Assembly (NCBI GenBank): GCA_947259495.1
Contig: CAMYLV010000014.1
Location: 13,761-77,760, forward strand
Length of the DNA: 64,000 nt
Source: an uncultured Desulfobacterales bacterium
GTDB lineage: Bacteria > Desulfobacterota > Desulfobacteria > Desulfobacterales > JAHEIW01
Reading direction: 5' to 3'
A program made the position numbers and the translations under genes. Positions 1,776-45,801 of the stretch are shown here, in pieces. The notes under the pieces are model-generated. The model had not been told where the DNA came from and did not search any database. It worked only from the letters and a program-made list of their open reading frames with translations. The stretch's first letter is position 1; each line of letters begins with the position of its first letter.

Positions 1776-1786
1776 AGCGGATGTCC

Positions 1787-1972: not shown

Positions 1973-1996
1973 TTAAGCCTCTCATGTGATTACTTC

Positions 1997-2025
1997 AATC
2001 TTGCATGAAAATTAATGAGAAGTTG
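1997..2025 (+). repeat. short dispersed motif AATCTTGCATGAAAATTAATGAGAAGTTG (family R2), copy a
   Basis: Near-identical strings occur at 20203-20240, 35133-35162 and, reversed, at 10710-10755. Confidence 0.7.
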
Positions 2026-2027
2026 TA

Positions 2028-5065: not shown

Positions 5066-5083
5066 ATCTTCATCACATCGATA

Positions 5084-5566: not shown

Positions 5567-5583
5567 CCCCTGTCCTCCATGAA

Positions 5584-5979
5584 TCATTCATCCTTCAGCT
5601 GGGCCAGAATTTCATCCTCTTCAAGCGTTTGGTATTGTTGGAATACCTTAATCACGAGTGCCAGTGCGACCCCCAGGGTTGCCACGGCTACGACAATCGC
5701 GGTAAGCATCAGCACATGCGGCAGCGGATTAATATAATCTGTCGCCTGGATAGCGTGGCTTTCAGCTGCATGGCCGTGTATGATAATGGGTATGGTGGCC
5801 TTATTTTTGGCACCCAGAGATATAAAGAATAAAATGACAGCGGTTTGAAGTATGTTCATCCCGATAATTTTTTTCACCAGGTTTTTCTTGGCAATCATGG
5901 CATACAGGCCGATCATCATCAGCACAATGTAGATCCAGTAATTTAACTTGGACATGATAATCGAGATCAGCTCGTTCAC
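5584..5979 (-). CDS. mrpC: Mrp subunit C (NuoK-like)
   Basis: 131 aa with three TM helices, and the NLVKKIIGMNILQTAVILFFISLG motif typical of MnhC/NuoK. Confidence 0.85.
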   Translation of the reverse strand: MNELISIIMSKLNYWIYIVLMMIGLYAMIAKKNLVKKIIGMNILQTAVILFFISLGAKNKATIPIIIHGHAAESHAIQATDYINPLPHVLMLTAIVVAVATLGVALALVIKVFQQYQTLEEDEILAQLKDE

Positions 5980-5981
5980 CT

Positions 5982-6812
5982 TTATAATCCCTCGTCATGC
6001 CTACCTGCCGAAGCCAGGTTATAGTAAAGATGGACCATGACCGCCATCACACAGATACCGACTCCAATTTCCACCATTAAGATCCCATGGGATCTTGCCG
6101 TGACCGGGTCCACGCCGAAAATCTTTGATAATGCGCCATAATCCAGATAGTTTGATCCCAAAAAGATACTCAAGGCCCCGGTTCCAGCATAGATGAAAAC
6201 CCCAAGACCACAAAGCAGAACGGCAAACTTTTCACTGATGCGGGTAAAACTCGATCGCAGGTTGTGGGATATGGCAAACAAAATTATCGAAGCGCCCAGG
6301 ATGACGCCGCCCTGAAATCCGCCGCCCGGACTGTGATGACCGTGGGCAATGACATACAGGGCAAATATCTGGCTGAATGGAACGATGAGACGCGCGCTGG
6401 TTTTGATAATCAAATCATAAGGGACCCACATCAGATCGATTCTCTCAAATTCCCTGGACTCCCGGGGGGGCTCGGCCCCTTTTGCGATACGAAGGGTGAT
6501 CCCGGTGGGAATGTGTCGATACAGCTGCGTTTCGGGTTCAATCCGTTTGAAAATCCGCAGCAGGAAGAGGCAGGCAACGCCGGCGGAAAAAATGACAATG
6601 GTTTCAAACATCGTATCGTATCCCCGGTAATCCGCCAGTACGGCCGTGACAATATTGGGGACCGAGGTTTCCTCCATGGTGCGTTCGATATAACGGGGCG
6701 ACACATGCATACTGGCCGGTGCCTGCGGATCACCCCAGGAAGGAAAGTCCAGAGTACAATAAATCAGAAGACCCCCGAACAGAAGCACAATGAATATGGC
6801 CAGTGTCTTCAA
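5982..6812 (-). CDS. mrpB: Mrp subunit B (MnhB domain)
   Basis: NIVTAVLADYRGYDTMFETIVIF and HGHHSPGGGFQGGVILG motifs. I place the start at the TTG at 6812, which is preceded by AAGGAGG and overlaps the upstream TGA. The Arg/His-rich N-terminus of the 342-aa ORF is discarded. Confidence 0.75.
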   Translation of the reverse strand: MKTLAIFIVLLFGGLLIYCTLDFPSWGDPQAPASMHVSPRYIERTMEETSVPNIVTAVLADYRGYDTMFETIVIFSAGVACLFLLRIFKRIEPETQLYRHIPTGITLRIAKGAEPPRESREFERIDLMWVPYDLIIKTSARLIVPFSQIFALYVIAHGHHSPGGGFQGGVILGASIILFAISHNLRSSFTRISEKFAVLLCGLGVFIYAGTGALSIFLGSNYLDYGALSKIFGVDPVTARSHGILMVEIGVGICVMAVMVHLYYNLASAGRHDEGL

Positions 6813-7054
6813 TCTTTTGTCCTCCTTGAGGTGCGAAAAACCGTCGCAACGAAAAGCACGGTGCTGATGCCGGCACCAACGGAAGCTTCGGTAAAAGCCA
6901 CATCGACCGCCCCCATGATGGCCCACAGCAGGCACATCATAAAGCTGTAGGCGCCGAAAAGTATGGCGGCTCCCAGCAGGTCTTTGACCGTGATGGCGCC
7001 GATGCCGCAAATGATAACGATCAATAAAACCACGAGTTCAATCTGCCAGATCAT
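6809..7054 (-). CDS. DUF4040 / MbhD-like subunit (equivalent to the MrpA C-terminal domain)
   Basis: 81 aa with AVDVAFTEASVGAGISTVLF, matching the (A)PDVALTEAAVGAG motif of DUF4040. Confidence 0.75.
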   Translation of the reverse strand: MIWQIELVVLLIVIICGIGAITVKDLLGAAILFGAYSFMMCLLWAIMGAVDVAFTEASVGAGISTVLFVATVFRTSRRTKD

Positions 7055-7371
7055 GATTGATCTTCCTTTGTCCAGGGTTTGAGACCGGCCCGCACCCCGG
7101 CGTCCACAATGGCATGCGTGGCTGTCGGGCTGGTGATATAAACGATAATAACGATTAAAACGATCTTGGTTGCCGTTAAAAAATTATGTAAAGAGAAATC
7201 TTGAAGCACAAACACGGCAATCGCCGACAACGTCAGCAACTGACCGGCGGTATCCAGTTTTCCGGCCGGATGCAGCCGGGAGTAAAAATCGGGCAATCGC
7301 AGAATACCGATAGAGCCGCCCGTAAAAAAAGCCAGACCGCTGAACAAAAGAATCATCACAATAATTTTCAT
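7051..7371 (-). CDS. mrpG: Mrp subunit G
   Basis: GSIGILRLPDFYSRLHPAGKLDTAG is the MnhG signature. Confidence 0.85.
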   Translation of the reverse strand: MKIIVMILLFSGLAFFTGGSIGILRLPDFYSRLHPAGKLDTAGQLLTLSAIAVFVLQDFSLHNFLTATKIVLIVIIVYITSPTATHAIVDAGVRAGLKPWTKEDQS

Positions 7372-7411
7372 TGATTCTGCCTCCTTGCCGCCTTACCGCC
7401 TTGTTTGATGA

Positions 7412-7699
7412 TCAAACAGGTGGTTTTTCCTCAAATAAGCCCCTTTTTTTCTGGAAATAACGTGAAGCCGCCAGCACGGCAATAAAGTTCAGCAATGCAT
7501 ACGCCAGTGCGATATCAACAAACATGTCCACCCGACCGTAGATCAAACCGACCAGTACCAGCAGGACAGTTGTTTTACTGCCGATGGCATTCACGCCGAT
7601 GAGGCGATCCAGAACGGTCGGACCGAAAATCGCCCGGTAAAGGGACAGCAACATAATCAGGCTCAGGTAGAAGCCACTGTAATAGAATACGGTGTCCAT
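7412..7699 (-). CDS. mrpF: Mrp subunit F
   Basis: 95 aa with three TM helices and the MnhF-like sequence YRAIFGPTVLDRLIGVNAIG. Confidence 0.8.
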   Translation of the reverse strand: MDTVFYYSGFYLSLIMLLSLYRAIFGPTVLDRLIGVNAIGSKTTVLLVLVGLIYGRVDMFVDIALAYALLNFIAVLAASRYFQKKRGLFEEKPPV

Positions 7700-7706
7700 T
7701 ATTTGC

Positions 7707-8270
7707 TTATTCTGGGAAGACCTTGACTATTTTTGATTCCATGTCACCTGGAAGGGCTTGACCGGATTTGTCGTCAATGCAATGAACCGAAAACCGACCC
7801 AGCACCGTCACATTCACGGTAATCGTACCGGGGGTCAGGGTGATGGAGTTGGCAAAAGTCGTACGCGCGTAATCGCTTTTTAACTCACTATCAAACTCGA
7901 TGATCTGTGGGTTGATGAGTTCCATCATCTTAGGATGGAACACCAGATACATGACGTGTAGGTTTGCTAAAAATATCTGGTAAATCAGCCAGGGGATGTA
8001 TGCGAACAGCCGAATCCACAGCCTGAATATGCCCCGGGGCTCGTGTGAGGTAAACATCAGATCGCCCGAAAAGGCGGCCACGATGGCACTGGATATGAGG
8101 CCCAAGGTGATGTGAAATCCATCGAATCTGCCGGAGAATATGATCCATACTACAAACAGAATCACAAACGAAAGAATAAAGGTGGCACCAAACCGTTTGG
8201 CCCTTGATGTTTTGGAAGGGTTCTCTTCAGAAGGGGCATTTCTTGAGGTTGGTTGAAAATCTTTTCCCAA
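7707..8270 (-). CDS. mrpE: Mrp subunit E
   Basis: ANSITLTPGTITVNV is the MnhE motif. It is the first gene of the operon. Confidence 0.8.
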   Translation of the reverse strand: MGKDFQPTSRNAPSEENPSKTSRAKRFGATFILSFVILFVVWIIFSGRFDGFHITLGLISSAIVAAFSGDLMFTSHEPRGIFRLWIRLFAYIPWLIYQIFLANLHVMYLVFHPKMMELINPQIIEFDSELKSDYARTTFANSITLTPGTITVNVTVLGRFSVHCIDDKSGQALPGDMESKIVKVFPE

Positions 8271-22236: not shown

Positions 22237-23100
22237 ATGACACTGCAAGTCAGAAAAGTGGCCCGCATCATAGAGCCCAGGCCGGTGCTCGAAGGCGCCG
22301 GGGTGAGGCTTAAAAGGAGCATTGCCACCGCTGAACTGGATCATGTCGATCCATTTTTATTGTTTGATCATTTTGGATCCAGCAACCCTGCGGATTATAT
22401 GAAGGGGTTTCCCATGCATCCGCATCGCGGAATTGAAACCGTCACTTACATGATTGAGGGGCGTGTAAACCATAAAGACAGCATTGGTAATTCAGGAACC
22501 ATCACAGACGGTGATGTCCAATGGATGACGTCCGGCCGGGGCATCCTGCACGAGGAAATGCCTCAACAAATTGATGGCGAAATGAAGGGCTTTCAGCTGT
22601 GGGTCAACCTTCCGGCCAAACTCAAGATGACCGCCCCGCGCTATCAGAATATAGCATCCGATCAGATACCGAAGGTTCAGATCCAAGATGGCGTTAAAAT
22701 TAGGGTGATCGCCGGTGAAATAAACGGTGTCTCCGGCCCGGTAAAAGAGATTGCAGCCGAACCGATCTATCTGGACGTCTCGGTTCCACCAAACACCTCT
22801 TTTTCACAGCCGATTGCCAGCGGGCACGCCGCCATAGCCTATGTTTTCGAGGGTGAGGGTGTATTTGGCCCAGACGAAAGCGAACAGGAACCCGCGGTTG
22901 GCCAGCCGCGCCTGGTAGTCTTTGGTGATGGGGATCTGATATCGGCCCGGGCTATGGATCAAGGCATGCGATTTCTGCTGGTTTCAGGCCAACCTTTAAA
23001 CGAGCCCATAGCACGCTATGGACCGTTTGTGATGAATACGCAGTCGGAAATTGAACAGACGCTGCAGCAGCTCAAAAACGGCACCTTCATCCAGAAGTGA
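22237..23100 (+). CDS. pirin-family protein
   Basis: GFPMHPHRGIETVTYMIEG...HKDS.GN is the cupin metal-site motif of pirins. Confidence 0.9.
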   Translation: MTLQVRKVARIIEPRPVLEGAGVRLKRSIATAELDHVDPFLLFDHFGSSNPADYMKGFPMHPHRGIETVTYMIEGRVNHKDSIGNSGTITDGDVQWMTSGRGILHEEMPQQIDGEMKGFQLWVNLPAKLKMTAPRYQNIASDQIPKVQIQDGVKIRVIAGEINGVSGPVKEIAAEPIYLDVSVPPNTSFSQPIASGHAAIAYVFEGEGVFGPDESEQEPAVGQPRLVVFGDGDLISARAMDQGMRFLLVSGQPLNEPIARYGPFVMNTQSEIEQTLQQLKNGTFIQK

Positions 23101-23127
23101 TTTAATAACCTCATCTAATGCGCGATA

Positions 23128-23232
23128 GCTGCGTTATAAACCGATTCAAAATACTCGAATACTAACGTGTATACTCCGTTTTTGAATCGGTTTACGTCTT
23201 GCTCTCGAACATGATATGAGGCTCTAAAATCA
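23128..23232 (+). repeat. about 100-nt structured element (family R6), copy 1; candidate 3'UTR/sRNA hairpin
   Basis: A 15-bp perfect stem, taaaccgattcaaaa / ttttgaatcggttta, encloses a 28-nt loop containing ctc...tactaac.tgt...ctccg. It is homologous to 30686-30790. Confidence 0.55.
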
Positions 23233-23325
23233 CTTCTACACAATGTTGGCTATTATTTTACAAGAGGAATTATTCATTAAACATTTAAGCAGCAGTTTAA
23301 TCACAACCCAAATGGAATTAGCTGA

Positions 23326-23820
23326 ATGGTTTATCGCAAAACGGTTAAAGAAATTATCATTCTGGTGGGTGTTGCGGTGACACTGGCTTTGGTGGTTAAC
23401 TATCTTTCGCCAAAAGGTATTGCCCTGGTGGGACAGTGGGACACAGCCAAAGGCGTCATTACTGCCAATGCCACCAATGACGATGATTATCGCATTTCGG
23501 AAATCGACTGGATACCGGATGCCAGAAAAATATTTGATAACGGCGATACGCTTTTTGTGGACGCGCGTTCAAGGGATGACTATGAAAGCGGACACATCCC
23601 GGGAGCCATATCATTGCCAGTGGGCCAATTTAATGAACAGATTGAATCTTTCCTGAATCAATACCCACCTGATCAATCCATCGTTACCTATTGCTCAGGC
23701 CGAACCTGCGAAGACAGCCATCATCTGGCCCGGTTGCTCTCAGATGTCGGGTTCAGTGACGTACGGATTTTTATTGACGGCTTCCCGGGTTGGGAAGCGG
23801 AGGGATATCCGATTGAGTAA
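23326..23820 (+). CDS. membrane-anchored rhodanese-domain protein
   Basis: An N-terminal TM helix. The active-site loop is IVTYCSGRTCEDS, followed by GFPGWEAEGYP. Confidence 0.85.
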   Translation: MVYRKTVKEIIILVGVAVTLALVVNYLSPKGIALVGQWDTAKGVITANATNDDDYRISEIDWIPDARKIFDNGDTLFVDARSRDDYESGHIPGAISLPVGQFNEQIESFLNQYPPDQSIVTYCSGRTCEDSHHLARLLSDVGFSDVRIFIDGFPGWEAEGYPIE

Positions 23821-24289
23821 TTTAGGACAATCCATAATAAAAAACAGCTGGATCGAACTGGCGGCCCGTTGGATTCTGGGACTCATCTTTATTTATGCAA
23901 GTCTCCATAAGATTTTATCACCTGCGGATTTTGCCAAAATTGTTTACGGCTATGATCTTTTTCCGCATGTATTCATCAATCTGATTGCCATCATAATCCC
24001 GTTCCTGGAACTTATTGCCGGCCTGGCCCTGATCATTGGTGTTTATCCGCGCTCGGCTGCAATCGTCATTAACGGTCTGCTCCTGGCCTTTATGGCAGCA
24101 TTAACCATCAATCTGATTCGCGGCCATGAATTTGATTGCGGCTGCTTTTCCGCCGGCCAGAGCGGATATTCAAGCTCTACCAAAGTGACACTGGTACGGG
24201 ACGTCATCTATTTTGTGTTTGGTCTACAGATTGTTCTGTTTGAAGGTAATCGCAGAAGCTACTTTGGCCGACTCAATTCTCGGCATTAG
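23813..24289 (+). CDS. MauE/DoxX-family redox-associated membrane protein
   Basis: Four TM helices and the FDCGCF motif. A TTG start at 23813 follows GGAGGG and overlaps the rhodanese stop. Confidence 0.7.
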   Translation: MSNLGQSIIKNSWIELAARWILGLIFIYASLHKILSPADFAKIVYGYDLFPHVFINLIAIIIPFLELIAGLALIIGVYPRSAAIVINGLLLAFMAALTINLIRGHEFDCGCFSAGQSGYSSSTKVTLVRDVIYFVFGLQIVLFEGNRRSYFGRLNSRH

Positions 24290-24358
24290 CTTCAAATTCA
24301 TGTCAAACAGCACTGTGAGCCAGGCCGTCAGCTTTGGCAATATTAAATACAAAAATAG

Positions 24359-24399
24359 CAGGCAGAGGATATGACCCATTTCCTCTGCCTGTTTTTTTT
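24359..24399 (+). terminator. rho-independent terminator
   Basis: caggcagagga / tcctctgcctg is an 11-bp stem followed by T8. Confidence 0.8.
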
Positions 24400-24427
24400 A
24401 TTTGACAAAAAAATAAACTTATTTTAA

Positions 24428-24449
24428 TATTCAATTAATCTATTGAATA
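24428..24449. promoter_or_regulatory. candidate ArsR-type operator
   Basis: The palindrome TATTCAAT-taatct-ATTGAATA lies 15 nt upstream of the ArsR-rhodanese start. Confidence 0.5.
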
Positions 24450-24463
24450 ATTGAGGAAAAGGT

Positions 24464-25141
24464 ATGAAAAATCCAAACCGAGCGTTTAAAGATGCCATTT
24501 ATGAACAGTTTGCACGAATCGGAAAGGCCGTTTCCAGTCCGAAGCGACTGGAGCTTTTGGATCTGCTGTGCCAGGGCCCGCGAAGCGTCGAGGTTTTGGC
24601 CAAAGAGTCCAGCCTGACATTTGCCAATGCATCCCAGCATCTGCAGGTCCTGCGGGCATCCCGTCTGGTGGAGGCTGACAAAGAAGGCCTGTATGTCATT
24701 TACAGGCTTGCCGATCAAAACGTCTGTGAGTTTTTTCGGTCCATGCGGTTGCTGGCTGAAAGCAGATTGGCCGAAGTTGAGCAGATCAAACGCCGTTTCT
24801 TGGGGGGCAGAGAAGGGATGGAGCCGGTGGATTGCAAAAAACTTCTGAGGCTCCTGCGGGAAGGCGCCGTGACGGTTTTGGATGTCCGCCCGAGGGTAGA
24901 GTACAATGCCGGGCACATTCCCGGAGCCTTATCCATCCCCCTTAAAGAGCTGCAGCTGGGCCTGGCGGATTTGCCTCGCGATCAGGACATCGTGGCCTAC
25001 TGTCGGGGTCCATATTGCGTTTTATCCATTCAGGCTGTGGAAATGCTGCGTGCCCGGGGGTTCAAGGCCATCCGCCTTGAAGAAGGGATTCAGGACTTGC
25101 AGGCCATGGGGTTTCCGATCGCTGTTAACGAAGCAAGCTGA
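24464..25141 (+). CDS. ArsR/SmtB-family regulator fused to a rhodanese domain
   Basis: The wHTH SSPKRLELLDLLCQGPRSVEVLAKESSLTFANASQHLQVLR, followed by a rhodanese domain with the loop IVAYCRGPYCVLS. Confidence 0.9.
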   Translation: MKNPNRAFKDAIYEQFARIGKAVSSPKRLELLDLLCQGPRSVEVLAKESSLTFANASQHLQVLRASRLVEADKEGLYVIYRLADQNVCEFFRSMRLLAESRLAEVEQIKRRFLGGREGMEPVDCKKLLRLLREGAVTVLDVRPRVEYNAGHIPGALSIPLKELQLGLADLPRDQDIVAYCRGPYCVLSIQAVEMLRARGFKAIRLEEGIQDLQAMGFPIAVNEAS

Positions 25142-25231
25142 GCAGCAATAAATATTTACTGCTCAAACGAACGCGCGTGATCGTAACTTTCAAAAAAGAT
25201 TGTCCATAGGGACAAAAGGAAAGCTTGACCG

Positions 25232-26971
25232 ATGAGCGGTTTAAGAAAAGCTTTGCTGGCGCTGGCAGCCGTAGCGTTAACCGTGGGTTCCCTCTTGCAC
25301 GCGAATCAGGAGGTTGTTCCCAAAACAGCCACCTGGCAGGATGTGCTGACCGAGGCCAAGCAGGGCGATTACCGGATTATAGACACCGATAAATTATGGG
25401 ATCGCTATAAAAAAGATCCTGGAAAAACCCTTCTTGTGGACACCCGCCAGGAATGGGAATACCGAACCGGACACATCAAGGGCGCCCTCAATTTTCCGAT
25501 CGAGCCGACCTGGTTGTCGCGCTGGCGCAATAAAGGTGCACTGGGAAAATTTTTGGGGCCGGATAAGAATCGTTTCATCGTGTTTTACTGAGCGGGGCTG
25601 GCATGAGTCCGCAGCGACTCGGCGGCCCGGGTGGCCGTGACGCTGGGTTATAAAAACGTCTTGCGTGACCCCATGGGTTATCCGGAATGGCATGCCAGGG
25701 GTCTTCCCGTTGACAGCACCCCGGCCGGGCTTTCTGAGGTATCGCTAACACCCCAACAGTCAAGGCCCCTGCAGGGCTGGGGGATGATCTGGACGCTTCT
25801 GGGCATCTTTGCCGGCGGAATCGCCCTGAACCTGACACCGTGTATCTATCCTTTAATTCCAATTACGGTTTCCTTATTCGGCGGTCAGCGCTCTGAGAGC
25901 CAGCGAAAGCTGATGCTTCACGGGACCTGTTATATCGGCGGACTTGCGCTCACCAACTCGGTGCTCGGGGTGATTGCAGCCCTGACCGGTGGACTGCTGG
26001 GGAGTTTACTGCAACACCCGATGGTGCTCGCTCTGGTGGCTGCCGTCTTGATCTTTTTTGCCACCAGTCTCTTTGGACTCTGGGAAATACGCCTTCCATA
26101 CGCTTTATCAAAGATGGCTTCAAGGACTTACACCGGTTATTTTGGAAGCCTCTTCATGGGCCTGACATTGGGCGTGGTAGCCTCGGCGTGTATCGGCCCG
26201 TTCATTTTGGGATTGCTCACCTGGGTCGCCACCATCGGAAGCATATGGATCGCGTTTTTAATCTTCTTTACCTTGAGCCTCGGCCTGGGCTTACCTCTCT
26301 TTTTTCTGGCCCTGTTTTCCGGACAACTGAACAAACTTCCGCGTTCCGGTGAATGGATGCTGTGGGTCACGAAGCTTTTGGGTTGGATTCTGGTGGGCAT
26401 GGCTGCTTATTTTATTCAGCCGTTGTTACCTGAAACTGCAAAGATTTTCTTACTGGCAGCCGTCGCTTTAGCTGCGGCATTGCACCTGGGCTGGATCGAC
26501 AGGACTCGGGCCGGGTTCCGGGGGTTCGAGTGGCTTAGAACCGCTGCAGCCATCGTAGGCCTGATCATAGCGACTTTTCTTATCGGTTCATGGGTAATGC
26601 GAGGCCCCGGCGTGACCTGGCATCCCTACTCAGAGCAGGTATTGGCGGAAGCACAAAGATTGCAAAAACCGGTCATCATGGATTTCTATGCCGACTGGTG
26701 CGCCCCCTGCCGCGAGCTGGATGAAGTCACGTTTCATGATCCTGAAATCATCAAACAGGCGAAAAGCAATTTTACCATGATTAAGGTTGACTTAACCCGC
26801 AAAGGCAATCCGATTCACGAAAGTTTACTACGGCAATATGGAGTCAAAGGTGTGCCCACAGTTGTGTTTTTAGACCCTCAGGGAAAAGAACAGCGCGATC
26901 TGCGCCTGGTGGATTTTGTGCCCGCCGAACAATTTTTAATCCACATGGCAGAAATTAAGAAAACTCAATAA
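25232..26971 (+). CDS. periplasmic rhodanese - DsbD(CcdA) membrane core - thioredoxin fusion, read through two in-frame UGA codons (candidate Sec at 25589-25591 and 25604-25606)
   Basis: ORFs 25232-25591 and 25631-26971 share one frame. The rhodanese domain spans the gap as FIVFY-TGA-AGLA-TGA-VRSDSAARVAVTLGYKNV...GYPEWHARGLPV. Downstream are LNLTPCIYP, ASACIGP and a C-terminal WCAPC. There is an N-terminal signal peptide. Confidence 0.7.
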
Positions 26972-27163
26972 AAAAAGTACTTGAATTTGCACGAGTCGGA
27001 GGCTCGCCCAAAGGGTGAAAATTGATGAGATAAAAAGATTTTTATCCATTTTATTTGATAATTTATTAGTCTACTTCGCTGACTTGCTTAGACTGCTATT
27101 ATTAAGGTTATTAAAGCGTCTCATTAATTTTAATGCAAATTCAAGTCTTAAAAGGAGATGATC

Positions 27164-27427
27164 ATGCTGAAAATCAGATTTTTCATGAACCTGCCCAATG
27201 GAAAGCCATGAAAGCACTTTAAAAAAATGATGCCCAGGCTGGGTGAAAAATACGACATCGAGATTGAAACGATCGAAAAGCCAAAAGACGAGTATATGAC
27301 CGATGAATATTTTGAACTCGATCTGCCGGTTGCGCCTGCGGTTATGGTAGGCGATGAAATTGTTGTAGAAGGGACCGACGTTTCCAAAAAAAAACTGGAG
27401 GCGGCAATCAAGGCAGGCCTGCAATAA
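27164..27427 (+). CDS. small thioredoxin-fold protein (redox-active-disulfide-protein-2-like) with an in-frame UGA (candidate Sec at 27209-27211)
   Basis: GGAG lies 6 nt before the ATG at 27164. The translation is MLKIRFFMNLPNGKP-U-KHFKKMMPRLGEKYDIEIETIEK...APAVMVGDEIVVEG..., with the CxxC position reading GKPU. A hairpin cccaggcuggg lies 21-33 nt after the UGA. Confidence 0.55.
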
Positions 27428-27455
27428 TCCGTCTTTGTTAAAAAGGGGTAAACGT

Positions 27456-28202
27456 ATGGAAATTCAATTTACGACTAAAGACAAAAAATGGATTCAAAAA
27501 ACGATTAGGAAAACATATTCCAAAGCCGCTAAAAACCCTGGTGGCCTGTTTAGATATCCCACGGGCCATGAGGGACTGATGGCTTTAAAATATGATCCTG
27601 AACTCCTGCAGGCGTTACCGGCGGAAGTTGCCGCTTCATATTGCGGCGTGGGCAATCCCTTCACCTTAGGACCCATAAATGCAGGGGATGCTGTGCTGGA
27701 TGTGGGCTGCGGAGCCGGCGTCGACGCGCTTTTTTCAGCGATGCGGACGGGCCCTTCGGGAAAAGTGACGGGGATCGATATAACCCCTGCAATGCTTAAG
27801 CGGGCTCAAAAGAATCTTTCGATGACGGATTTAAAAAATGTCCGCTTTGAGGAAGGATCGGTTGAAAACCTGCCCTTTGCAGATGAAGTCTTTGACGTTG
27901 TAACCTCAAATGGGGCCTTAAACCTTATCCCCGACAAAACCAGGGCCTTTGGTGAGATCTACCGCGTTTTAAAATCAGGTGGACGCCTGATGGTCGCAGA
28001 CGAAATTCTAATCGGTGAATTGCCCACGGAAAAAAATAAAATAATTAAAAGCTGGGCTCAGTGAGAGGGCGGGGCAATACCGGGAAAGGATTTCCTGGCA
28101 ATGCTTCAAAAGGTTGGGTTCAAAACCCCCGAGCTGGTTGCTAAAACGGGATTTAACAGCTCACCCAAAACAGAGGGCGTATTGATTCGTGCGATAAAAT
28201 AG
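27456..28202 (+). CDS. ArsM-like SAM-dependent methyltransferase with an in-frame UGA (candidate Sec at 28062-28064)
   Basis: SYCGVGNPF and VLDVGCGAGVD motifs. Reading through gives ...KSWAQ-U-EGGAIPGKDFLAMLQKVGFKTPELV...-TAG at 28200-28202. In ArsM-type enzymes a Cys sits at this spot (yaGCiaGA...aGF). A hairpin ccgggaaaggauuuccugg lies 17-35 nt after the UGA. Confidence 0.65.
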
Positions 28203-28417
28203 ACCAAAAAATTTCGTCGAAAAGCCTGACAACAATCTTGCCAGACGAACAAGTTGTATTCACATCAATTATTAACACCCAATTCACATATCTGAATCAA
28301 CCTTTTAGGCTATAAATAAACGCCAGTGGTCAATTAAACCAGGGCCGAAGTTTGAAATATGAAGCGCCTGTGCTGATAGGACGTTTTTTAAAGCAATCAT
28401 ATTTCCGATATACTTAA

Positions 28418-28924
28418 TTAGCTGTCGGCCACACCGGCCCGCATCATTCGGCTGACCACCAGATGATGAAACGGCCGGATAATATTGAAATACACCGGTC
28501 CGGTCCAGTGTTTGTAATGCACGATCGTGGCCACATGAAACCGCTTGCGGTTTACCGCCAGGGGTTCGACGAAGACCCCAAAATAGGCGCTCAGGTGCTT
28601 ATCCTCCGGTGTTTCGCCGACCCAATATCGCTTTTCTTTTGCCAACCGCACGGTGAAGAAAGTTACAAGATCACCCACCGCAAACGATATATCTGCGGCC
28701 TTCAAATGCGGCAAGACTTCCGGCGCCTGATGTTCAACCAAACCCAGTATCTTGACCAAAACGGCGCGAATACGGTAGAGCAGCAAAACCCACCAGGGAT
28801 AGTAAGACAACATTGATGCCGCAAACTGGCGCAAGGATGTGTTGCCTTCGATGGTCTTGACGTCGATATAGTTTGATTCTTCAAACAACGGGCCAATCTC
28901 CGGAATTTGTTCAATGAAGTTCAT
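28418..28924 (-). CDS. DUF2867-like protein
   Basis: 168-aa ORF. The family assignment is from memory (SYYPWWVLLLYRIR pattern). It overlaps the upstream gene stop. Confidence 0.5.
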   Translation of the reverse strand: MNFIEQIPEIGPLFEESNYIDVKTIEGNTSLRQFAASMLSYYPWWVLLLYRIRAVLVKILGLVEHQAPEVLPHLKAADISFAVGDLVTFFTVRLAKEKRYWVGETPEDKHLSAYFGVFVEPLAVNRKRFHVATIVHYKHWTGPVYFNIIRPFHHLVVSRMMRAGVADS

Positions 28925-35401: not shown

Positions 35402-36655
35402 TCAGTTACGGCGCGAATCGGAAGAGCCATCGCAGTTGGGGCAACAATCGGACACCACCGGCAGCGGTTCAGCCAGCGTTTTTTCAGTCTCAGATATGGT
35501 CTCTTCCTGCTTTGGTGCCGGTTTGAAGCGCGCCCACAGCGCATTCCAGATGGGTTTAACCGACATCGCCAGAATCATCAGCGCACCGATCACCCCCACC
35601 CAATGCGGCACAATTTCTGAAGCCTGGCCCACTACTGCCTGGGCCGATATCCCTAACGATGCATATACCTGATCAACGATTAAACCAAAACCAACGGCAC
35701 AGACCGCAATGGATGCCAGGTAGATGGCGGTGGCCCGCTTGCCCAGCACACCGGTCAAGACCGTTAAGGAGGCGATATTGGTGGCCGGCCCGGCTAAAAG
35801 GAAAACCAGAGCTGCACCGGGGCTGACGCCTTTAAGAATCAGGGCCGCGGCAATGGGTGTTGAGGCCGTTGCACAAATATATAATGGGATACCGACCGCC
35901 AGCATGATCAGCATGGCCGGAAGACCGGAGCCCAGATATTTACCGAACATATCCGGCGGGATCAGCACTGTAATCAACCCGGCCAATATCATTCCAATCA
36001 TAAACCAGCCAGCCAGATCATCCCAGAGATCATCGACGGCGAAGCGCATACCGGCGGCAAGCTTCTCCCCAAAGGTGTGATGCCGGCGATGCTCTTCAGG
36101 CGAACAGTTTTCTCCGTCGCAGCAGCCATCCACCGGGCAGTTCAGATCCGGGGTGATGCGGGTCGTTTCGCTTTTCGGACCCAAAAGGTTTTCGGTAATG
36201 CCGGCAACCGCCGCGGTAATAAAAGCCACCACCGGACGCGCGACGGTCATGATGGGATCCAAAAGGGCATAGGTGATCGAAATGGAATCCACCCCGGATT
36301 CGGGGGTTGAAATCAAAAATGCGGTGGTGGCGCCATTGTTGGCGCCCTGTTTGCGCAGCGACACGGCTGCGGGCAGCACGCCGCATGATCACAACGGAAT
36401 CGGAATGCCAAAAAAAGCGGATTTCAGGACGGATTTAAAGCGACCCTGTCCCAGGTGTTTGGCAATCGAACTGGGATTTAAAAAAACCCGCAAAAGCCCG
36501 GCCACCAACAACCCGAACAAAATGTAAACCGAAGCGTCAACCAGTAAATCCCATGTAGCCAGTAAAATATCGATAATAAAATTCAAGTTCTTATACCTTT
36601 TTATGTAATCAAAACACTTTGCGCTATGCTCTATTTCCCGCGGAGAACACAGCAT
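35402..36655 (-). CDS. SO_0444/COG0701-type metal(loid) permease with an in-frame UGA (candidate Sec at 36389-36391)
   Basis: ORFs 36389-36655 and 35402-36379 share one frame. Read-through gives FGIPIPL-U-SCGVLPAAVSLRKQGANNGATTAFLISTPESGVDSI, where family members have PLCSCG. Cys/His-rich loops are present (CPVDGCCDGENC, CCPNCDG). A hairpin cgcagccgugucgcugcg lies about 18-35 nt after the UGA. Confidence 0.7.
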
Positions 36656-39487: not shown

Positions 39488-40541
39488 AAAGACGGGGTCA
39501 AATCTTGAATTGTGAATTCATTGCATCAAATTTAGCTCTTAATTTCGTGTCTTTTTTTAGCTTTGCTTTAGCAGCTTTAACACTGTGGCTGACCGATGAA
39601 TATGTCAATCCAAAAAGCGCGCCAATCCTTGCATTCGTCAACCGTCCTGTCTTCCAAATCAAATAGATGAGCGCGTCCCGCTGATCTTTTTCCAATCCCG
39701 ATAGACGACCAGGTTTTAATATGCGTTTCAGATCGCAGTTTAGCATCTTAGCGGCCTTACGCAAAATAATGGGAGGATCCATACGATCTGCTAATTGCTT
39801 TTGCCCTGGAATTTCATCGTGAGGCTTCTCCGGTAAATGGCTTTTGTGTATCTGCGCGACAAATTTCTTTGATCCTAAAAAACAGCCATGCCGAAAATCC
39901 TCCCACAGTTGCTTTTCTTCTTTGGAATAGCGCTGGACTTTCTCGCGGTATAATCGGTGCTGCTCTTTTCCTTCACCTGCAAATTGCGCTAAGATCAGTT
40001 CGGTTGATAACCAGGCGGGTACATTCCTTCCATATGCATACGCCCGGTAGCTGCTCCAGGGATAGTCCGCCAGTCGTTTGACAATTTCGCCCCTTAATGG
40101 ATTGCGATGAATATAACAAGAAAGCTGCAGCATATAGGCATCATTTTGCACTAAGATGCTTTTGTAACGACCTTGAAATAGATGTCCACTCCTGCTGTGC
40201 CGATAATTAAAACGAGTAGTGTACGTAACCCCAAACCAATGCATCGCTTTGGCTAAATTGCCATGTTGCGTCCTGATTAGAAGATGATAGTGATTGTTCA
40301 TTAAAACATAGGCAAACATGTCGATCGCGAAACGATCAGCCATCTCGCCAAGCGTATCCAAAAACATGCGCCGATCGTCGTCATCTATAAAAATGTCTCT
40401 TTTCTCGTTGCCGCGGGATAACAGATGATAAAAAGCCCCTTCATATTCTATCCGCCAGGATCTAGCCATATTTTAGCTAATTATTTAAGCCAAGTTAAAA
40501 TGTCAATAATTATTCACAATTCAAGATTTGACCCCGTCTTT
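39488..40541 (-). mobile_element. IS200-like Y1 (RAYT-like) transposase unit bounded by perfect 30-bp inverted repeats
   Basis: aaagacggggtcaaatcttgaattgtgaat at 39488-39517 is the exact reverse complement of 40512-40541. Confidence 0.8.
39498..40469 (-). CDS. Y1 HUH transposase (IS200-like/REP-associated type) with a C-terminal DnaA-C-like HTH
   Basis: The HUH motif NNHYHLLIRT and the Tyr region YIHRNPLRGEIV..LADYPWSSY. The C-terminus LTNARIGALFGLTYSSVSHSV is HTH-like. The last 6 codons lie inside the left IR. Confidence 0.8.
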   Translation of the reverse strand: MARSWRIEYEGAFYHLLSRGNEKRDIFIDDDDRRMFLDTLGEMADRFAIDMFAYVLMNNHYHLLIRTQHGNLAKAMHWFGVTYTTRFNYRHSRSGHLFQGRYKSILVQNDAYMLQLSCYIHRNPLRGEIVKRLADYPWSSYRAYAYGRNVPAWLSTELILAQFAGEGKEQHRLYREKVQRYSKEEKQLWEDFRHGCFLGSKKFVAQIHKSHLPEKPHDEIPGQKQLADRMDPPIILRKAAKMLNCDLKRILKPGRLSGLEKDQRDALIYLIWKTGRLTNARIGALFGLTYSSVSHSVKAAKAKLKKDTKLRAKFDAMNSQFKI

Positions 40542-40641: not shown

Positions 40642-41799
40642 TTAGCTGCGGGTTTCTTCCTTGACCGAAACCGCAATTTTAAACAACGCGGTCAGCACAA
40701 AAAACCCCATGGCCCACACCCCCAGTGCAATTCCGATTTCCGGCAGAGAAGGAATATACTCATTGACTTCATGTAATGGTGATGGGGTGAACCCGCCGGC
40801 GATCATTCCCAGCCCCTTGTCAATCCAGGTTCCCAGGAAGATAACCACGCAGGCAACGGCCAGTACGCCTTCATTTTTACGGCTGGTCGGTATGACGGTC
40901 AGAATAATACCGATAATCATCAGGATAAATGAGGCCCACATCCAGGGTACGTAGGCCGTATGGCCGTGCAGGCCGACAAACAGGTATTTGATGTGATCCA
41001 TGTGTTCCGGAATCTGGCTGTAAAAGGCCACAAATACTTCACACAAAAAGAAGAACACATTGACGCAAATCGCATAGGCCACGATTTTGGCCAGAGATTG
41101 AATCTGTTCCCGGCCGGGGTCAAAATTGCTTACCCGCCGGATGATCAGGCAGCACAAAATCAGCAGTGCCGGACCGGCCGCAAAAGCCGAAGACAAAAAG
41201 CGCGGCGCCAGAATGGCGGTCATCCAGAAGCCCCTGCCCGGCAGACCGCAGTACAGGTAAGCGGTCACGGTGTGGATGCTGATGGCCCAGGGAATGGACA
41301 GGTAGATTAGCGGTTTCAACCATTTCTGGTAATGCACGCCGTTGCGTTCGGCCTCCAGCACGTTCCAGCCGATAATGATGTTTAAAATCAGATAGCCGTT
41401 TAAAACGATGGTATCCCAGAACAGCACGGAGTTAGGCGTTGGATACAAAAAGACATTAAAAATCCGCGTGGGCTGGCCTAAATCAACCAGGATAAAGGTC
41501 ACACACATCAGAACCGAAGAAATGGCCAAAAATTCGCCCAGGATGGTGACCTTGCCGAATGCTTTGTAATCATGCAGATAATAGGGCAGCACCACCATCA
41601 CCCCTCCGGCGGCCACACCCACTAGAAAGGTAAAGTTGGCAATATAAAAACCCCAGGACGTATCCCGGCTCAGGCCGGTGATCCCCAGTCCAAAATCGAG
41701 CTGTTTTAAATACAGCAGAAAACCGATACCAACAAAGACCATTAAAAAGGTCATCCAGCCATAATATTTTTTGCCGCCTTTAAGTGCTAATTCAAGCAT
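40642..41799 (-). CDS. dsrP: DsrP (NrfD/PsrC-type quinol-interacting membrane subunit)
   Basis: 385 aa, about 10 TM helices, NrfD-like, last gene of the dsrMKJOP order. Confidence 0.85.
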   Translation of the reverse strand: MLELALKGGKKYYGWMTFLMVFVGIGFLLYLKQLDFGLGITGLSRDTSWGFYIANFTFLVGVAAGGVMVVLPYYLHDYKAFGKVTILGEFLAISSVLMCVTFILVDLGQPTRIFNVFLYPTPNSVLFWDTIVLNGYLILNIIIGWNVLEAERNGVHYQKWLKPLIYLSIPWAISIHTVTAYLYCGLPGRGFWMTAILAPRFLSSAFAAGPALLILCCLIIRRVSNFDPGREQIQSLAKIVAYAICVNVFFFLCEVFVAFYSQIPEHMDHIKYLFVGLHGHTAYVPWMWASFILMIIGIILTVIPTSRKNEGVLAVACVVIFLGTWIDKGLGMIAGGFTPSPLHEVNEYIPSLPEIGIALGVWAMGFFVLTALFKIAVSVKEETRS

Positions 41800-41807
41800 T
41801 ATTCACC

Positions 41808-42596
41808 TCACACGATGTAATAAACACTGGGCTCGGTGCCCAGAATTTGTTTGCGACGAATGGTGTAATGGGTTCGGATCAGTTCGCGAACTTCCGACGC
41901 AGGATCGTACAAATCCCCGAAAGCCAGGGCGCCGTTGGAGACCTCCACACAGGCCGGTAATTGACCGACCGCCAGACGTTCGGCACAAAAATTACATTTT
42001 TCGACCACACCTTTCATACGCGTCGGAAATTTATTGTTGGTTTCCTTAATAAAGGGTCGCGGATCCCGGTAGTTAAAACTGCGGGCACCGAACGGGCAGG
42101 CCGCCATGCAGAAGCGGCATCCGATGCAGCGGTGAAAATCCATAAACACGATGCCGTCGGCTTCGCGTTTCCACGTTGCTTTGGTCGGACAGGCCCGCAC
42201 GCAGGGCGGATTCTCACAATGGTTGCACAAAACCAGAAAGGGGCGATGCTCAACCTTTTCGGCCAAAAAACGTGCCGCCTTGCCCGGAAAAGCATTGTGG
42301 TAATGCGTCCCCCAGAGCCATTTGATTTCATGGTTTTTGTTCTGCAAAGCCGGAACATTGTGAATCTTGTGGCAGGCTTCAATCAGGGGCTCCAGATCCG
42401 CCTCAGATTCGAATTTACGGGTATCGATAACCATGGCCCACTGTCTGGCCTTCAGCGATTTGGCCCCTTCTTTAATGACGACTTCAGCCCCGGTTGTCTG
42501 CTCCTCTTTGGCAAATGCATTTAAAACCGGCCGGGTGGTTAGCGCCAAGGCAGAAATTCCAAATAATCGTAAAATGCGTCTTCGGCTGCTATCCAT
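41808..42596 (-). CDS. dsrO: DsrO (periplasmic 4Fe-4S ferredoxin-like subunit)
   Basis: The Tat signal SRRRILRLFGISALA and several CxxCxxCxxxCP motifs. Confidence 0.85.
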   Translation of the reverse strand: MDSSRRRILRLFGISALALTTRPVLNAFAKEEQTTGAEVVIKEGAKSLKARQWAMVIDTRKFESEADLEPLIEACHKIHNVPALQNKNHEIKWLWGTHYHNAFPGKAARFLAEKVEHRPFLVLCNHCENPPCVRACPTKATWKREADGIVFMDFHRCIGCRFCMAACPFGARSFNYRDPRPFIKETNNKFPTRMKGVVEKCNFCAERLAVGQLPACVEVSNGALAFGDLYDPASEVRELIRTHYTIRRKQILGTEPSVYYIV

Positions 42597-42985
42597 TAGC
42601 TCTTCTCCTTCGGGTTTTCAATATGGCAACTCCAGCAGTAAGGCCTGACTGAAGCATAATTGTGACAGCGGTCACAAAATTCGGCTTTATTGGAATGACA
42701 GTCCAAACAGGTGTTGCTCAGACTCATATTAAATTCTTTGCCTTCGGGATTGACATAGATTCGTTTGCCTTCGCGCACCACAGCATCCCGCCAGACGTCC
42801 AGCAGCTGCATATGCTCGGCTTTCATGTATTCGGTAGAGCGCACACATTTTTGAGCTGCTTTGGCCTTGGGTGTCAATTCCACCTCCGGCACAGGGGCGG
42901 CTTTTCCGCGCATGTACCAGAAGGGAAACAAAACGATGAGAAAAAATATGACCACTCCCGTCACAATCAGTGCTTTACTTTTCAT
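42596..42985 (-). CDS. dsrJ: DsrJ (triheme cytochrome c)
   Basis: Three haem motifs, CLDCH, CDRCH and CWSCH. GGAGGA lies 8 nt before the ATG at 42985. Confidence 0.85.
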   Translation of the reverse strand: MKSKALIVTGVVIFFLIVLFPFWYMRGKAAPVPEVELTPKAKAAQKCVRSTEYMKAEHMQLLDVWRDAVVREGKRIYVNPEGKEFNMSLSNTCLDCHSNKAEFCDRCHNYASVRPYCWSCHIENPKEKS

Positions 42986-44642
42986 CAGCTTGTTCCTCCG
43001 ACTCAATGTCTGATTCTTCTTCGACGACCTCGCGACCCGGGATGTCCTCGCCCCGCAGATCGGTGGAGCGTTCGTTCTCCCCGGGCATAATCAGGGCATT
43101 GGCCACCATTTCATGCAACCCGGTGACATCCACTTCCGGCACCCAGTATTCCATCAGGGGTGGCAGTGCGGCCCGGTCAATGGCACAGATACAGGCCAGC
43201 ATGTTCACGCCGTGTTTTTCATGAACGTGTTTAACCGCGTTGGCGCGCGGCAAACCGCCGGTCAGACGCAATTCCATGTTTTCACCGGCATTCAGACCCG
43301 CGCCGCTGCCGCAGCAGAAGGTATTTTCGCGGATGGTGTTGGCCGGCATTTCATAAAAATGATTGCAAACGCTTTCAATGACGTAGCGCGGTTCGTCAAA
43401 GATTCCCATGCCCCGGGACGGATTACAGGAGTCATGGAAGGTTACTTTTAAGTGATCGTTGCGGCTGGGATCCAGTTCGAGTTTGCCGTGTTTGATCAAA
43501 TCGGCAACAAACTCGGCGATGTGCACCATCCGATTGGATCTGGCATTCTCGAACTTGGTACCGGTAATCGGTGAAACCGGCTCTTCCAGAAAATCGGTCG
43601 GCCCGTTCATGGTGTCCATGTACTGGTTGATGACCCGCCACATGTGGCCGCATTCGCCGCCCAGGATCCACTTGACCCCCAGGCGTTTGGCTTCGGCATA
43701 CATCTTGGAGTTGAGCCGTTTCATGGTCTCGTGCGAGGTAAAAAATCCGAAGTTGCCGCCCTCGGAACCATAGGTGCTCCAGGTCACGTCAAGCCCGTAT
43801 TTCTCCTTGAGATAATGAAACAGCATCAAGTACCCCATGGCGGTGTAAGTGCCCGGATCGGCAAACACATCTCCCGAGGGAGTAATAAAAAGAATGTCGG
43901 CGCCCTTTTTGTTGATATTGCAGTCCACCTGAACGCCGGTGATTTCTTCGATGTCTTCCACAAAAAAATCGAGCATATCTTTAAAGGCGTGGGGCTGGAT
44001 CCCCAGATGGTTGCCGGTGCGGTAACAGTTGGCCACCGGGGTGGCAATCCAGTCAATGTTGAGTCCCAGCAGGTTCAGCAGTTCCCGGCCCATAATGGTG
44101 ATCTCGGCCGTATCGATGCCATAGGGGCAAAACACCGAACAGCGCCGGCATTCGGAGCATTGAAACAGGTAGTACCACCACTCTTTGAGCACATCTAAGC
44201 TCATGGGCCGCGCCCCGTTTATTTTGCCCAGAATTTTGCCCATGCGGGTAAAGTCGTTGCGGTAAACAGATCTTAGCAGTTCAGCCCTCAGCACCGGCAT
44301 GTTTTTGGGATCACCGGTTCCGATGAAATAATGACATTTATCGGCACAGGCCCCGCAGCGCACACAGATATCCATAAATACCCGGAACGATCGAAATTTT
44401 TCCAACCGTTCCTTAAAACCTTCATGGATAATTTCCTGCCAGTTTTCCGGAAGCTGCCAGTCTTCGTCCAGCGGGTTCCACTGTCTGGCATTGGGAAGAC
44501 CGAGATATTCGACACTTTTGGGATTTGAGGCATAGCAGTACATGCCTTTGCGGATATCAACCGGAACGTCCATCCAGTCCGTTTTCGGCGGGCGGTGATC
44601 GATCTGTATGAGTTCTTCCGGTTTGGGTGTTTCATCTGCCAT
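42975..44642 (-). CDS. dsrK: DsrK (HdrD-like CCG-domain Fe-S subunit)
   Basis: CVRCGACADKCH, CSECRRCSVFCPYG and the CCG motif TFCCGSGAG. Confidence 0.9.
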   Translation of the reverse strand: MADETPKPEELIQIDHRPPKTDWMDVPVDIRKGMYCYASNPKSVEYLGLPNARQWNPLDEDWQLPENWQEIIHEGFKERLEKFRSFRVFMDICVRCGACADKCHYFIGTGDPKNMPVLRAELLRSVYRNDFTRMGKILGKINGARPMSLDVLKEWWYYLFQCSECRRCSVFCPYGIDTAEITIMGRELLNLLGLNIDWIATPVANCYRTGNHLGIQPHAFKDMLDFFVEDIEEITGVQVDCNINKKGADILFITPSGDVFADPGTYTAMGYLMLFHYLKEKYGLDVTWSTYGSEGGNFGFFTSHETMKRLNSKMYAEAKRLGVKWILGGECGHMWRVINQYMDTMNGPTDFLEEPVSPITGTKFENARSNRMVHIAEFVADLIKHGKLELDPSRNDHLKVTFHDSCNPSRGMGIFDEPRYVIESVCNHFYEMPANTIRENTFCCGSGAGLNAGENMELRLTGGLPRANAVKHVHEKHGVNMLACICAIDRAALPPLMEYWVPEVDVTGLHEMVANALIMPGENERSTDLRGEDIPGREVVEEESDIESEEQADEK

Positions 44643-44645
44643 AGT

Positions 44646-45731
44646 TTACTCCTTTTCCTCTGCTTGCTCAGGCTCTGAGGCCGGCGTTTTCGCCGCTGCG
44701 GGCTCCGGCATTTTTTCAACCGGCAATCCGACTTCCACCATTTTCTCCCTGAATTCGTCCTCATACTCATCGTAGGTATGCACCGGCACCGGGTAATTCC
44801 AGGGATTAACGTGCCGTCGGGCACGGGTGTCGGTGGGCATGTTGCGCGTCGGGCTTAAAAAAACACCGCCGAGGTGCATCAATTTGCTAAATGGAAAATA
44901 GGCAATAAAAATACTGACCAAAAAGACGTGCACAAAAAATATGGCGCTGACCCCTTCCGGAATGTTGGGCCGGAAAGTGATCAATCCCAGGGTCAGTTCT
45001 TTGGCGGCAGTCACATCAATCTTGGCGAAATAGCGCATGAGGATACCGCTGAGGGCGATTCCGAAAATCAGAAACAGTGGAAAATAATCCGATGCAATCG
45101 AAATATATTTGACCTGGCGCACAAAAAGCCGTCTGAAAAACAGGTAGCTGACAGCAGCCAGCAGAACAAAGCCCGAAAGATAAACCCCGGGCACTCCAAA
45201 TTTAAAAGCCGGATAAATGATCTCAACCCGGAAGAAACTGTCGACATTTTCAACAAGTTGAACGAAAAACGGCACCGGCTCGGTAAAAAACCGCAGATGG
45301 CGAATGAGTACCACCAGAAAAGCATAATGGAAGGCCAGCGCGCCCACCCACAAAAAAATTTCGAGCTGGTAGGACAATCGGCCGCCCTGGGTTAACTTCA
45401 TGCGGGTGTTTCTGAACAGGGACCGAAAGGTGAATATTTCCAGCGCCATCCGCACGACGATCTGCCAGCCGTTTGCCGGGCTATCAAACTTGGAATGTTG
45501 AATCCAGGGCAGAGATTTTTGCTGACCGCCCGTGGTGGGGATACTGAAGGGCACCGGCGACCGTGACCAGTTGATCACGCGATAGGCAAATCCCAGCACA
45601 AATGTGATAATCGCCAGGTAGGGAACAACGACACCCAAAAGATATTGCAGTCCTGACACCTGGGCGCCCAGATAGGAAATCAAAAAAAGAAGGATAACGG
45701 CAATCAGCGGAACGATGTACCTTAAATTCAT
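44646..45731 (-). CDS. dsrM: DsrM (NarI-like dihaem cytochrome b)
   Basis: A NarI-type membrane protein. GTGAGGTG lies 8 nt before the ATG at 45731, so the longer ORF start is rejected. Confidence 0.85.
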   Translation of the reverse strand: MNLRYIVPLIAVILLFLISYLGAQVSGLQYLLGVVVPYLAIITFVLGFAYRVINWSRSPVPFSIPTTGGQQKSLPWIQHSKFDSPANGWQIVVRMALEIFTFRSLFRNTRMKLTQGGRLSYQLEIFLWVGALAFHYAFLVVLIRHLRFFTEPVPFFVQLVENVDSFFRVEIIYPAFKFGVPGVYLSGFVLLAAVSYLFFRRLFVRQVKYISIASDYFPLFLIFGIALSGILMRYFAKIDVTAAKELTLGLITFRPNIPEGVSAIFFVHVFLVSIFIAYFPFSKLMHLGGVFLSPTRNMPTDTRARRHVNPWNYPVPVHTYDEYEDEFREKMVEVGLPVEKMPEPAAAKTPASEPEQAEEKE

Positions 45732-45801
45732 TGAACAGCACCTCACTGTAGGGCTCCGGGCTGCCGGTGCTGCCGGCAAACCCGTGGCCGGGTTGCGAAG
45801 A

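Follow-up and report, generated by a model that had tools for sequence, protein, structure and literature searches.

The 64,000-nucleotide (nt) stretch of DNA from an uncultured Desulfobacterales bacterium analyzed here (called the window below; G+C content 48.7%, with all coordinates in its own numbering) carries at 25232-26971 a tsoB gene with two in-frame UGA codons. We propose that both codons are decoded as selenocysteine (Sec) through a hairpin at 25622-25638 that resembles a bacterial Sec insertion sequence (SECIS), which would create a U-A-G-L-A-U loop in the exported rhodanese domain of TsoB. We give this reading a probability of about 0.88.

The match to the NCBIfam model NF045694 (seleno_TsoB), in which residues 6 to 576 follow profile positions 2 to 572 of 572 with a score of 997.4 bits (cutoff 805), establishes the predicted protein as a TsoB. 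Its rhodanese loop carries the UxxxxU motif with two Sec codons, and its Pfam domains come in the order Rhodanese, DsbD_TM and Thioredoxin_7, as in that family. Haft and Tolstoy are said to be the source of the TsoB family, in mSystems in 2025 (10:e0141724). The table of a 2026 review lists TsoB with the motif UxxxxU and two Sec residues, with the credit given to Haft & Tolstoy 2025, and describes Tso as the "three selenoprotein operon," made up of TsoA (LULAxC), TsoB, and TsoC (NEPxGxxU), with more selenoprotein genes nearby (PMC13188914). Judged by its sequence, 25232-26971 is an ordinary member of this family, whose publication and curation date from 2025, and is not a discovery. An earlier interpretation made from the letters alone (the sequence-only reading) had implied that a double-Sec rhodanese-DsbD fusion was new, which does not hold, since NF045694 and the review (PMC13188914) already describe the family. 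The gene and its parts are as follows.

25232-26971, forward strand: tsoB, complete coding sequence (579 codons and a TAA stop) that contains two in-frame UGA codons (predicted Sec).
25232-25306, forward strand: N-terminal hydrophobic segment, residues 1-25, a signal peptide or signal anchor (hydropathy peak at residues 4-25).
25391-25696, forward strand: rhodanese domain, residues 54-155, spanning both TGAs (Pfam PF00581, E = 2.9e-13).
25589-25591, forward strand: UGA1, predicted Sec120, at the catalytic-Cys position of the rhodanese loop.
25604-25606, forward strand: UGA2, predicted Sec125, second position of the U-A-G-L-A-U loop.
25787-26425, forward strand: DsbD/CcdA-type transmembrane core, residues 186-398 (DsbD_TM, Pfam PF02683, E = 3.4e-39).
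26615-26878, forward strand: C-terminal thioredoxin-like (DsbD gamma-like) domain, with Thioredoxin_7 at residues 462-549 (Pfam Thioredoxin_7, Thioredoxin_2, and Thioredoxin).

Translation of the whole frame revealed exactly two internal stops, both TGA, and the local read-through sequence is FIVFY-TGA-AGLA-TGA-VRSDSAAR. The list of open reading frames (ORFs) breaks the gene into 25232-25591 and 25631-26971, which share one frame, and eight sense codons lie between the second TGA and the GTG at 25631; on all of this, including the position of the TGAs in the rhodanese loop, the sequence-only reading was correct. It had also argued that the ORF gap splits a rhodanese fold, and the Pfam Rhodanese match (50.6 bits; gathering score 22.2) indeed covers both TGAs when, as in all our Pfam and NCBIfam profile scans of TsoB, Cys is substituted at both stops. 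Sec120 aligned to the catalytic cysteine of the solved rhodaneses 6mxv, 3d1p, and 2hhg; the TsoB loop, which contains Sec125, exceeds theirs by two residues. By the topology of DsbD, the N-terminal segment would put the rhodanese domain outside the cytoplasm. Two conserved cysteines, Cys204 (25841-25843) and Cys320 (26189-26191), are found in the membrane core, for which we count eight helices: seven hydrophobic peaks and the Cys204 helix, the latter inside the Pfam DsbD_TM match. The thioredoxin-like Pfam matches together cover residues 462-569, and the W-C-A-P-C motif of this domain is located at 26699-26710.

The conservation of the two UGA codons was followed in 92 loci, comprising the window, 11 loci from species-representative genomes (all metagenome-assembled genomes labeled Desulfobacterales or "delta proteobacterium"), and 80 metagenome loci that were found with the protein pattern VDTRQ[EDP]WE, independent of the TGA codons; protein identity ranged from 55 to 83%. 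TGA was present at both positions in 92 of 92 loci, never TAA and never TAG, with UAGLAU as the loop in 79. Between the TGAs, A-G-L-A is maintained by four codons whose third positions vary (for instance, GCG 53, GCA 14, GCC 14, and GCT 2), which shows that the ribosome reads through UGA1 in frame and that the product is under purifying selection. Full-length homologues of 578 residues with Cys at both positions were among the matches listed in a search with the complete protein, namely P0071 (FYCTGQTC) and P0081 (FYCAGPDC), whose codons there are TGT/TGC and TGC/TGT. The claim that the UGAs fall on both Cys positions of a CxGxxC loop is thus borne out by the invariant TGA pair, the Cys/Cys homologues, and the rhodanese alignment, and the invariant pair equally upholds the argument that two such stops would be an unlikely form of decay.

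The locus might instead be a decayed gene or, as public annotation presents it, two genes, a rhodanese remnant and an independently initiated DsbD-like gene starting from GTG 25631. Public gene callers do split tsoB in this way: a search with the 119 N-terminal residues returned 1308 clusters, in which 115 of the best 120 stop precisely at ...(V/F)Y ahead of UGA1. Of the 120 matches listed for the full-length protein, more than 100 are about 445 residues long, share 72-100% identity with it, and start with (M/V)AV(K/T)LGY past the second TGA. The shorter piece, where named, is called "3-mercaptopyruvate sulfurtransferase SseA" or "hypothetical protein," and the longer one "DsbD" or "CcdA." We nevertheless consider a split or decayed gene very improbable, since it would cut the rhodanese domain in two, both stops are always TGA, purifying selection acts in frame on the codons between and past the TGAs, and full-length Cys homologues exist. 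Moreover, GTG 25631 is part of the conserved hairpin and has no evident ribosome-binding site ahead of it, and the curated NF045694 model covers the full length. Least probable of all is that the TGAs are base-calling or assembly artefacts or that UGA has been reassigned by an alternative genetic code, as the same two TGAs occur in 91 independent assemblies from different projects and nothing was found that speaks specifically for such a cause; the window also has a standard genetic code, since TGA ends 11 of its 45 well-supported ORFs. Taken together, the evidence effectively excludes decay, separate genes, sequencing error, and code reassignment.

Of the arrangements that the sequence-only reading had named for orthologues, Cys/Cys was found in P0071 and P0081 and Sec/Sec in the 92 loci. 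L164, a 519-nt metagenome contig, has a Cys/Sec form, with TGC at the first position and TGA at the second (465-483) and the hairpin intact; it is the sole mixed form in some 210 sequences and may reflect a sequencing error. In a further homologue (P0120; L163:5352-5430), the Sec positions are occupied by GGA (Gly) and CGA (Arg), each one base from TGA, the downstream hairpin sequence is kept, and the gene adjoins a TsoX (PF26315) gene; by its sequence, P0120 looks like a redox-dead derivative of TsoB. Apart from L164 and the homologues that lack Sec, the two Sec codons co-occur without exception, a pattern consistent with a functional pair.

The element proposed to direct Sec insertion lies just downstream of UGA2.

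25622-25638, forward strand: SECIS-type hairpin GCGGCC-CGGGU-GGCCGU, with a 6-bp stem and a 5-nt loop (covariation and fit to the bacterial SECIS model).

We analyzed the hairpin with RNAalifold and by explicit pair counting in an ungapped alignment of 79 sequences (A2). Across this alignment, pairing holds in 99.4% of cells. Two pairs of the stem change on both sides, from GC to AU in 11 sequences and from CG to UA in 3, with GU and UG intermediates also present; the covariation score was reached by none of 500 column shuffles. The loop follows [C/A]G[G/U][G/U][U/C], with an invariant G as its second base and G or U next. The hairpin folds with a free energy of -9.5 kcal/mol in the window, 72 of the 79 sequences reach -7.5 kcal/mol or lower, and the apical loop stands 36 nt from UGA1 and 21 nt from UGA2. 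The bacterial SECIS model calls for a loop of 3-9 nt, a stem of 4-16 bp, a G among the first two loop bases, a distance of 16-37 nt between UGA and apical loop, and a free energy of -7.5 kcal/mol or below (PMC13188914 Fig. 2). The hairpin agrees with it in loop, stem, G[G/U], energy, and spacing. The bSECISearch model is framed for one UGA per element, whereas here one hairpin suits two UGAs that are 15 nt apart.

Conservation at synonymous sites points in the same direction. Third-codon-position identity among 85 distinct sequences is 0.85 at +19 to +51 from UGA1 (25607-25639) versus 0.62 outside (Mann-Whitney p = 8.6e-5), and this stretch is very G+C-rich compared with the window. Three Ala codons within the stem show only transitions that preserve pairing; all four bases occur in the Ala codon at +4. 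A shifted register favored by minimum free energy (pairs 38-44 with 49-55 in A2) had no compensatory changes and 10 broken cells, and the register pairing 40-45 with 51-56 was preferred. Rfam gave no match at gathering thresholds, and a permissive Rfam scan of 25400-25800 produced only chance-level hits (sX12, RsmW, and flavivirus xrRNA; E = 0.55-5.7). The compensatory changes and the fit to the bacterial model bear out 25622-25638 as the SECIS candidate. It was one of three hairpins put forward by the sequence-only reading; all three can be found, and covariation supports this one alone. The other two are listed here.

25605-25620, forward strand: candidate helper hairpin GAGUC-CGCAGC-GACUC, overlapping UGA2 (pairing and synonymous-site conservation).
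25592-25615, forward strand: alternative weak helix enclosing UGA2, the first hairpin of the sequence-only reading (pair counting).

The 25605-25620 hairpin (-4.8 kcal/mol) has 96.7% of its cells paired, no compensatory changes, and one pair broken in ten sequences, and in the 25592-25615 helix about 99% of cells are paired with one-sided wobble changes only. The two structures are mutually exclusive. Given 95-96% conservation at the synonymous sites 25609 and 25618, both are possible helpers for the decoding of UGA1.

Several observations weigh against the decoding of both UGAs through this hairpin. Single-sequence folding is no more stable than in shuffled controls (z of -0.02 to -0.36), and the ensemble probability of the hairpin pair 42-54 averages only 0.28; as thermodynamics alone cannot support the hairpins, we rely on covariation and synonymous-site conservation. 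Two evolutionary events may be enough to account for the compensatory changes. The Cys/Cys homologue at L161 (P0081, 6355-6430) keeps a hairpin, GCGGCC-CGGCU-GGCCGU, as does the Gly/Arg locus L163 its hairpin sequence, and part of the conservation could therefore reflect coding constraint or recent ancestry; the L161 hairpin is either a fossil SECIS left by a recent Sec-to-Cys change or a sign of coding constraint. None of selA, selB, selD, and the gene for tRNA-Sec is located within the 64-kb window, although three further selenoprotein genes in it point indirectly to a Sec-using host. No function is given for TsoB in the review (PMC13188914) or in the BSepDB paper, the primary TsoB paper being outside this coverage. 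Finally, the 36-nt spacing of UGA1 is at the edge of the range that the model allows.

This last point also bears on the possibility that only UGA2 is a SECIS-directed Sec codon, with UGA1 poorly or differently decoded, either by termination after 119 residues or by near-cognate insertion of Trp or Cys, such that the full-length protein would be rare or contain a single Sec. The hairpin is well placed for UGA2 but distant from UGA1, the nearer hairpin at 25605-25620 is weak and lacks covariation, and L164 indicates that the first position can be Cys while the second stays Sec. On the other hand, UGA1 is TGA in every one of the 92 loci and falls on the rhodanese catalytic cysteine, the residue least tolerant of Trp or of loss, and a rhodanese truncated there would not form a folded domain. 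The constant use of TGA, to the exclusion of TAA and TAG, speaks for Sec decoding, and both NCBIfam and the review (PMC13188914) count two Sec. Thus, we regard decoding of UGA2 alone as unlikely and favor Sec insertion at both codons.

TsoB also resembles DsbD of E. coli and its relatives (NF001419), whose beta (eight transmembrane helices) and gamma (CxxC) parts align to TsoB residues 178-576 (profile 161-573). The score of 258 bits falls below the DsbD cutoff of 330. Both DsbD membrane cysteines are conserved in TsoB. DsbD begins with an immunoglobulin-like alpha domain, whereas TsoB has a rhodanese in its place and a terminal pair that is Sec/Sec and not Cys/Cys; the Pfam order and the start of the NF001419 match at profile position 161 corroborate the earlier suggestion of such a replacement. 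The single-Sec rhodanese-like selenoproteins of forms 1-4 likewise have Sec for the catalytic Cys of the rhodanese loop, with the motifs UxxS, UxxG, and CxU and one Sec each (PMC13188914). None of these forms is listed as a fusion to a DsbD core in the review table (PMC13188914), and TsoB differs in having a second Sec five residues later.

We hypothesize the following mechanism. The 25622-25638 hairpin would direct Sec insertion at both UGAs, possibly with the weaker 25605-25620 hairpin aiding at UGA1, and SelB would act from 36 and then 21 nt on one element as the ribosome advances five codons. In DsbD, reducing equivalents pass from the cytoplasm to the membrane Cys pair, then to the gamma domain, and from there to the N-terminal domain. 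The relay logic of TsoB is likely the same by analogy. With both the rhodanese and the thioredoxin-like domain in the periplasm, as DsbD topology would predict, a cytoplasmic thiol or selenol donor would pass reducing equivalents to Cys204/Cys320, these to the periplasmic WCAPC thioredoxin-like domain, and this in turn to the Sec120/Sec125 pair, which would alternate between the diselenide and diselenol states while acting on a periplasmic substrate. This substrate could plausibly be a chalcogen or metalloid, because an ArsR-type regulator, extra rhodaneses, an ArsM-like methyltransferase, and a Cu/Zn-type efflux selenoprotein are encoded in the same window. More tentatively, and at rather less than even odds, one SECIS hairpin programs two Sec insertions 15 nt apart and so yields, in the loop of an exported rhodanese domain, a vicinal diselenide that is recharged by the DsbD-type core. 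In the literature covered, which leaves the primary TsoB paper outside it, we found no experimental test of one bacterial SECIS serving two UGAs.

The genes around tsoB match a Tso context in part, and four selenoprotein genes are present in the window (tsoB, tsoC, an ArsM-like gene, and an SO_0444-family transporter gene). The sequence-only reading missed that the next two genes downstream of tsoB are selenoprotein genes.

24464-25141, forward strand: ArsR-type helix-turn-helix (HTH) plus rhodanese gene (loop YCRGPYC), directly upstream of tsoB, where tsoA is found elsewhere (Pfam HTH_5 and Rhodanese).
27164-27427, forward strand: tsoC, 87 residues, UGA at 27209-27211 in the motif NLPNGKPU (NF045708 seleno_TsoC, 149.2 bits, cutoff 45).
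27453-28202, forward strand: ArsM-like S-adenosylmethionine methyltransferase selenoprotein gene, UGA at 28062-28064 (SWAQ-U-EGGA), TAG stop at 28200-28202 (NF041536, NF041537, and NF047649).
35402-36586, reverse strand: SO_0444-family Cu/Zn efflux transporter gene (Pfam ArsP_1), TGA at 36391-36389 (IPIPL-U-SCG) (NF033936).

The ORF list shows just a 66-residue tail of tsoC (27227-27427), and an exact search for NEPxGxxU missed the gene in its variant form, which tblastn detected. In most related loci, tsoB is followed directly by tsoC. TsoC gives marginal matches to the thioredoxin fold (Pfam Thioredoxin_3, E = 0.033; PDB thioredoxins, E about 1), and no N-terminal hydrophobic stretch was seen in its sequence; that it is a cytoplasmic partner of TsoB is speculation.

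The window shares with the TsoB family (NF045694) the UxxxxU motif with two Sec, the combination of rhodanese, DsbD core, and thioredoxin, and a tsoC directly downstream, but it differs in its surroundings, having no tsoA, an ArsR-HTH/rhodanese gene upstream instead, and an ArsM-like selenoprotein gene after tsoC. Neither the LULAxC motif nor a TsoA tblastn match was found in the window. A TsoA match occurs in 18 related loci, mostly directly upstream of tsoB, while about 50 have the ArsR-rhodanese gene upstream instead, and this gene is kept at 70-87% identity in many loci. Two tsoB contexts can be distinguished (L001-L013 and L081-L160), tsoA-tsoB-tsoC in the more distant relatives and ArsR-rhodanese in the place of tsoA in the clade of the window. 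The closest relatives have the same gene order as the window: WrbA, pirin, rhodanese, MauE/DoxX, ArsR-rhodanese, tsoB, tsoC, and often the ArsM-like selenoprotein gene. The arrangement of ArsR-rhodanese, tsoB, tsoC, and the ArsM-like gene without tsoA may represent an undescribed Tso subtype. We also considered the upstream ArsR-HTH/rhodanese protein as a TsoR (NF045707) and rejected this assignment at 43.3 bits against a cutoff of 115.

A second CxGxxC rhodanese gene upstream, exported-looking and with the loop YCSGRTC, is found at 23326-23820 on the forward strand beside a MauE/DoxX membrane protein gene, whose longest ORF (23744-24289, forward strand) it overlaps by 77 nt in a different frame; in the closest relatives, the pair keeps synteny with the genes for WrbA and pirin. 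The two upstream rhodaneses (23326-23820 and 24464-25141) have the same YCxGxxC layout as TsoB, with Cys where TsoB has Sec, and their loops read as previously quoted (IVTYCSGRTCEDS and IVAYCRGPYCVLS). A perfect palindrome 17 nt before tsoB, TTGTCCATAGGGACAA (TTGTCC-ATAG-GGACAA, 25200-25215), was examined as an operator; since it lacks conservation across 85 related loci, a shared operator is improbable. Promoter and terminator scans of 23000-28600 yielded no more hits than shuffled sequence did.

The ArsM-like protein matches the methyltransferase part of NF041536, NF041537, and NF047649 across its UGA, below the full-length cutoffs, and lacks the C-terminal domains of these models. A hairpin of -16.8 kcal/mol lies 3' of its TGA, and the gene is syntenic in the closest relatives. 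The efflux transporter, with Cys in place of Sec, scored 425.6 bits against the NF033936 cutoff of 300, and the match spans the TGA. Elsewhere, on the reverse strand, the window holds an Mrp/Mnh-type antiporter cluster at 1-8270, an IS200-like Y1 transposase gene at 39498-40469, and a DsrMKJOP-like set (NrfD, 4Fe-4S proteins, and a nitrate-reductase-gamma-like subunit) at 40642-45779, genes that are consistent with a sulfate-reducing Desulfobacterales host.

The family, motif, and operon of TsoB were already published and curated, and what the comparative data add is a single covarying hairpin within the permitted SECIS distance of both UGAs. tsoB is systematically mis-annotated in public records as two genes, whose pieces form more than a thousand sequence clusters, and the three other selenoprotein genes of the window would suffer the same mis-calling. 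TsoB is among the few bacterial proteins with two Sec in one catalytic loop. If the proposal is true, a periplasmic diselenide fed by a DsbD-type core would be an unusually low-potential extracytoplasmic reductant.

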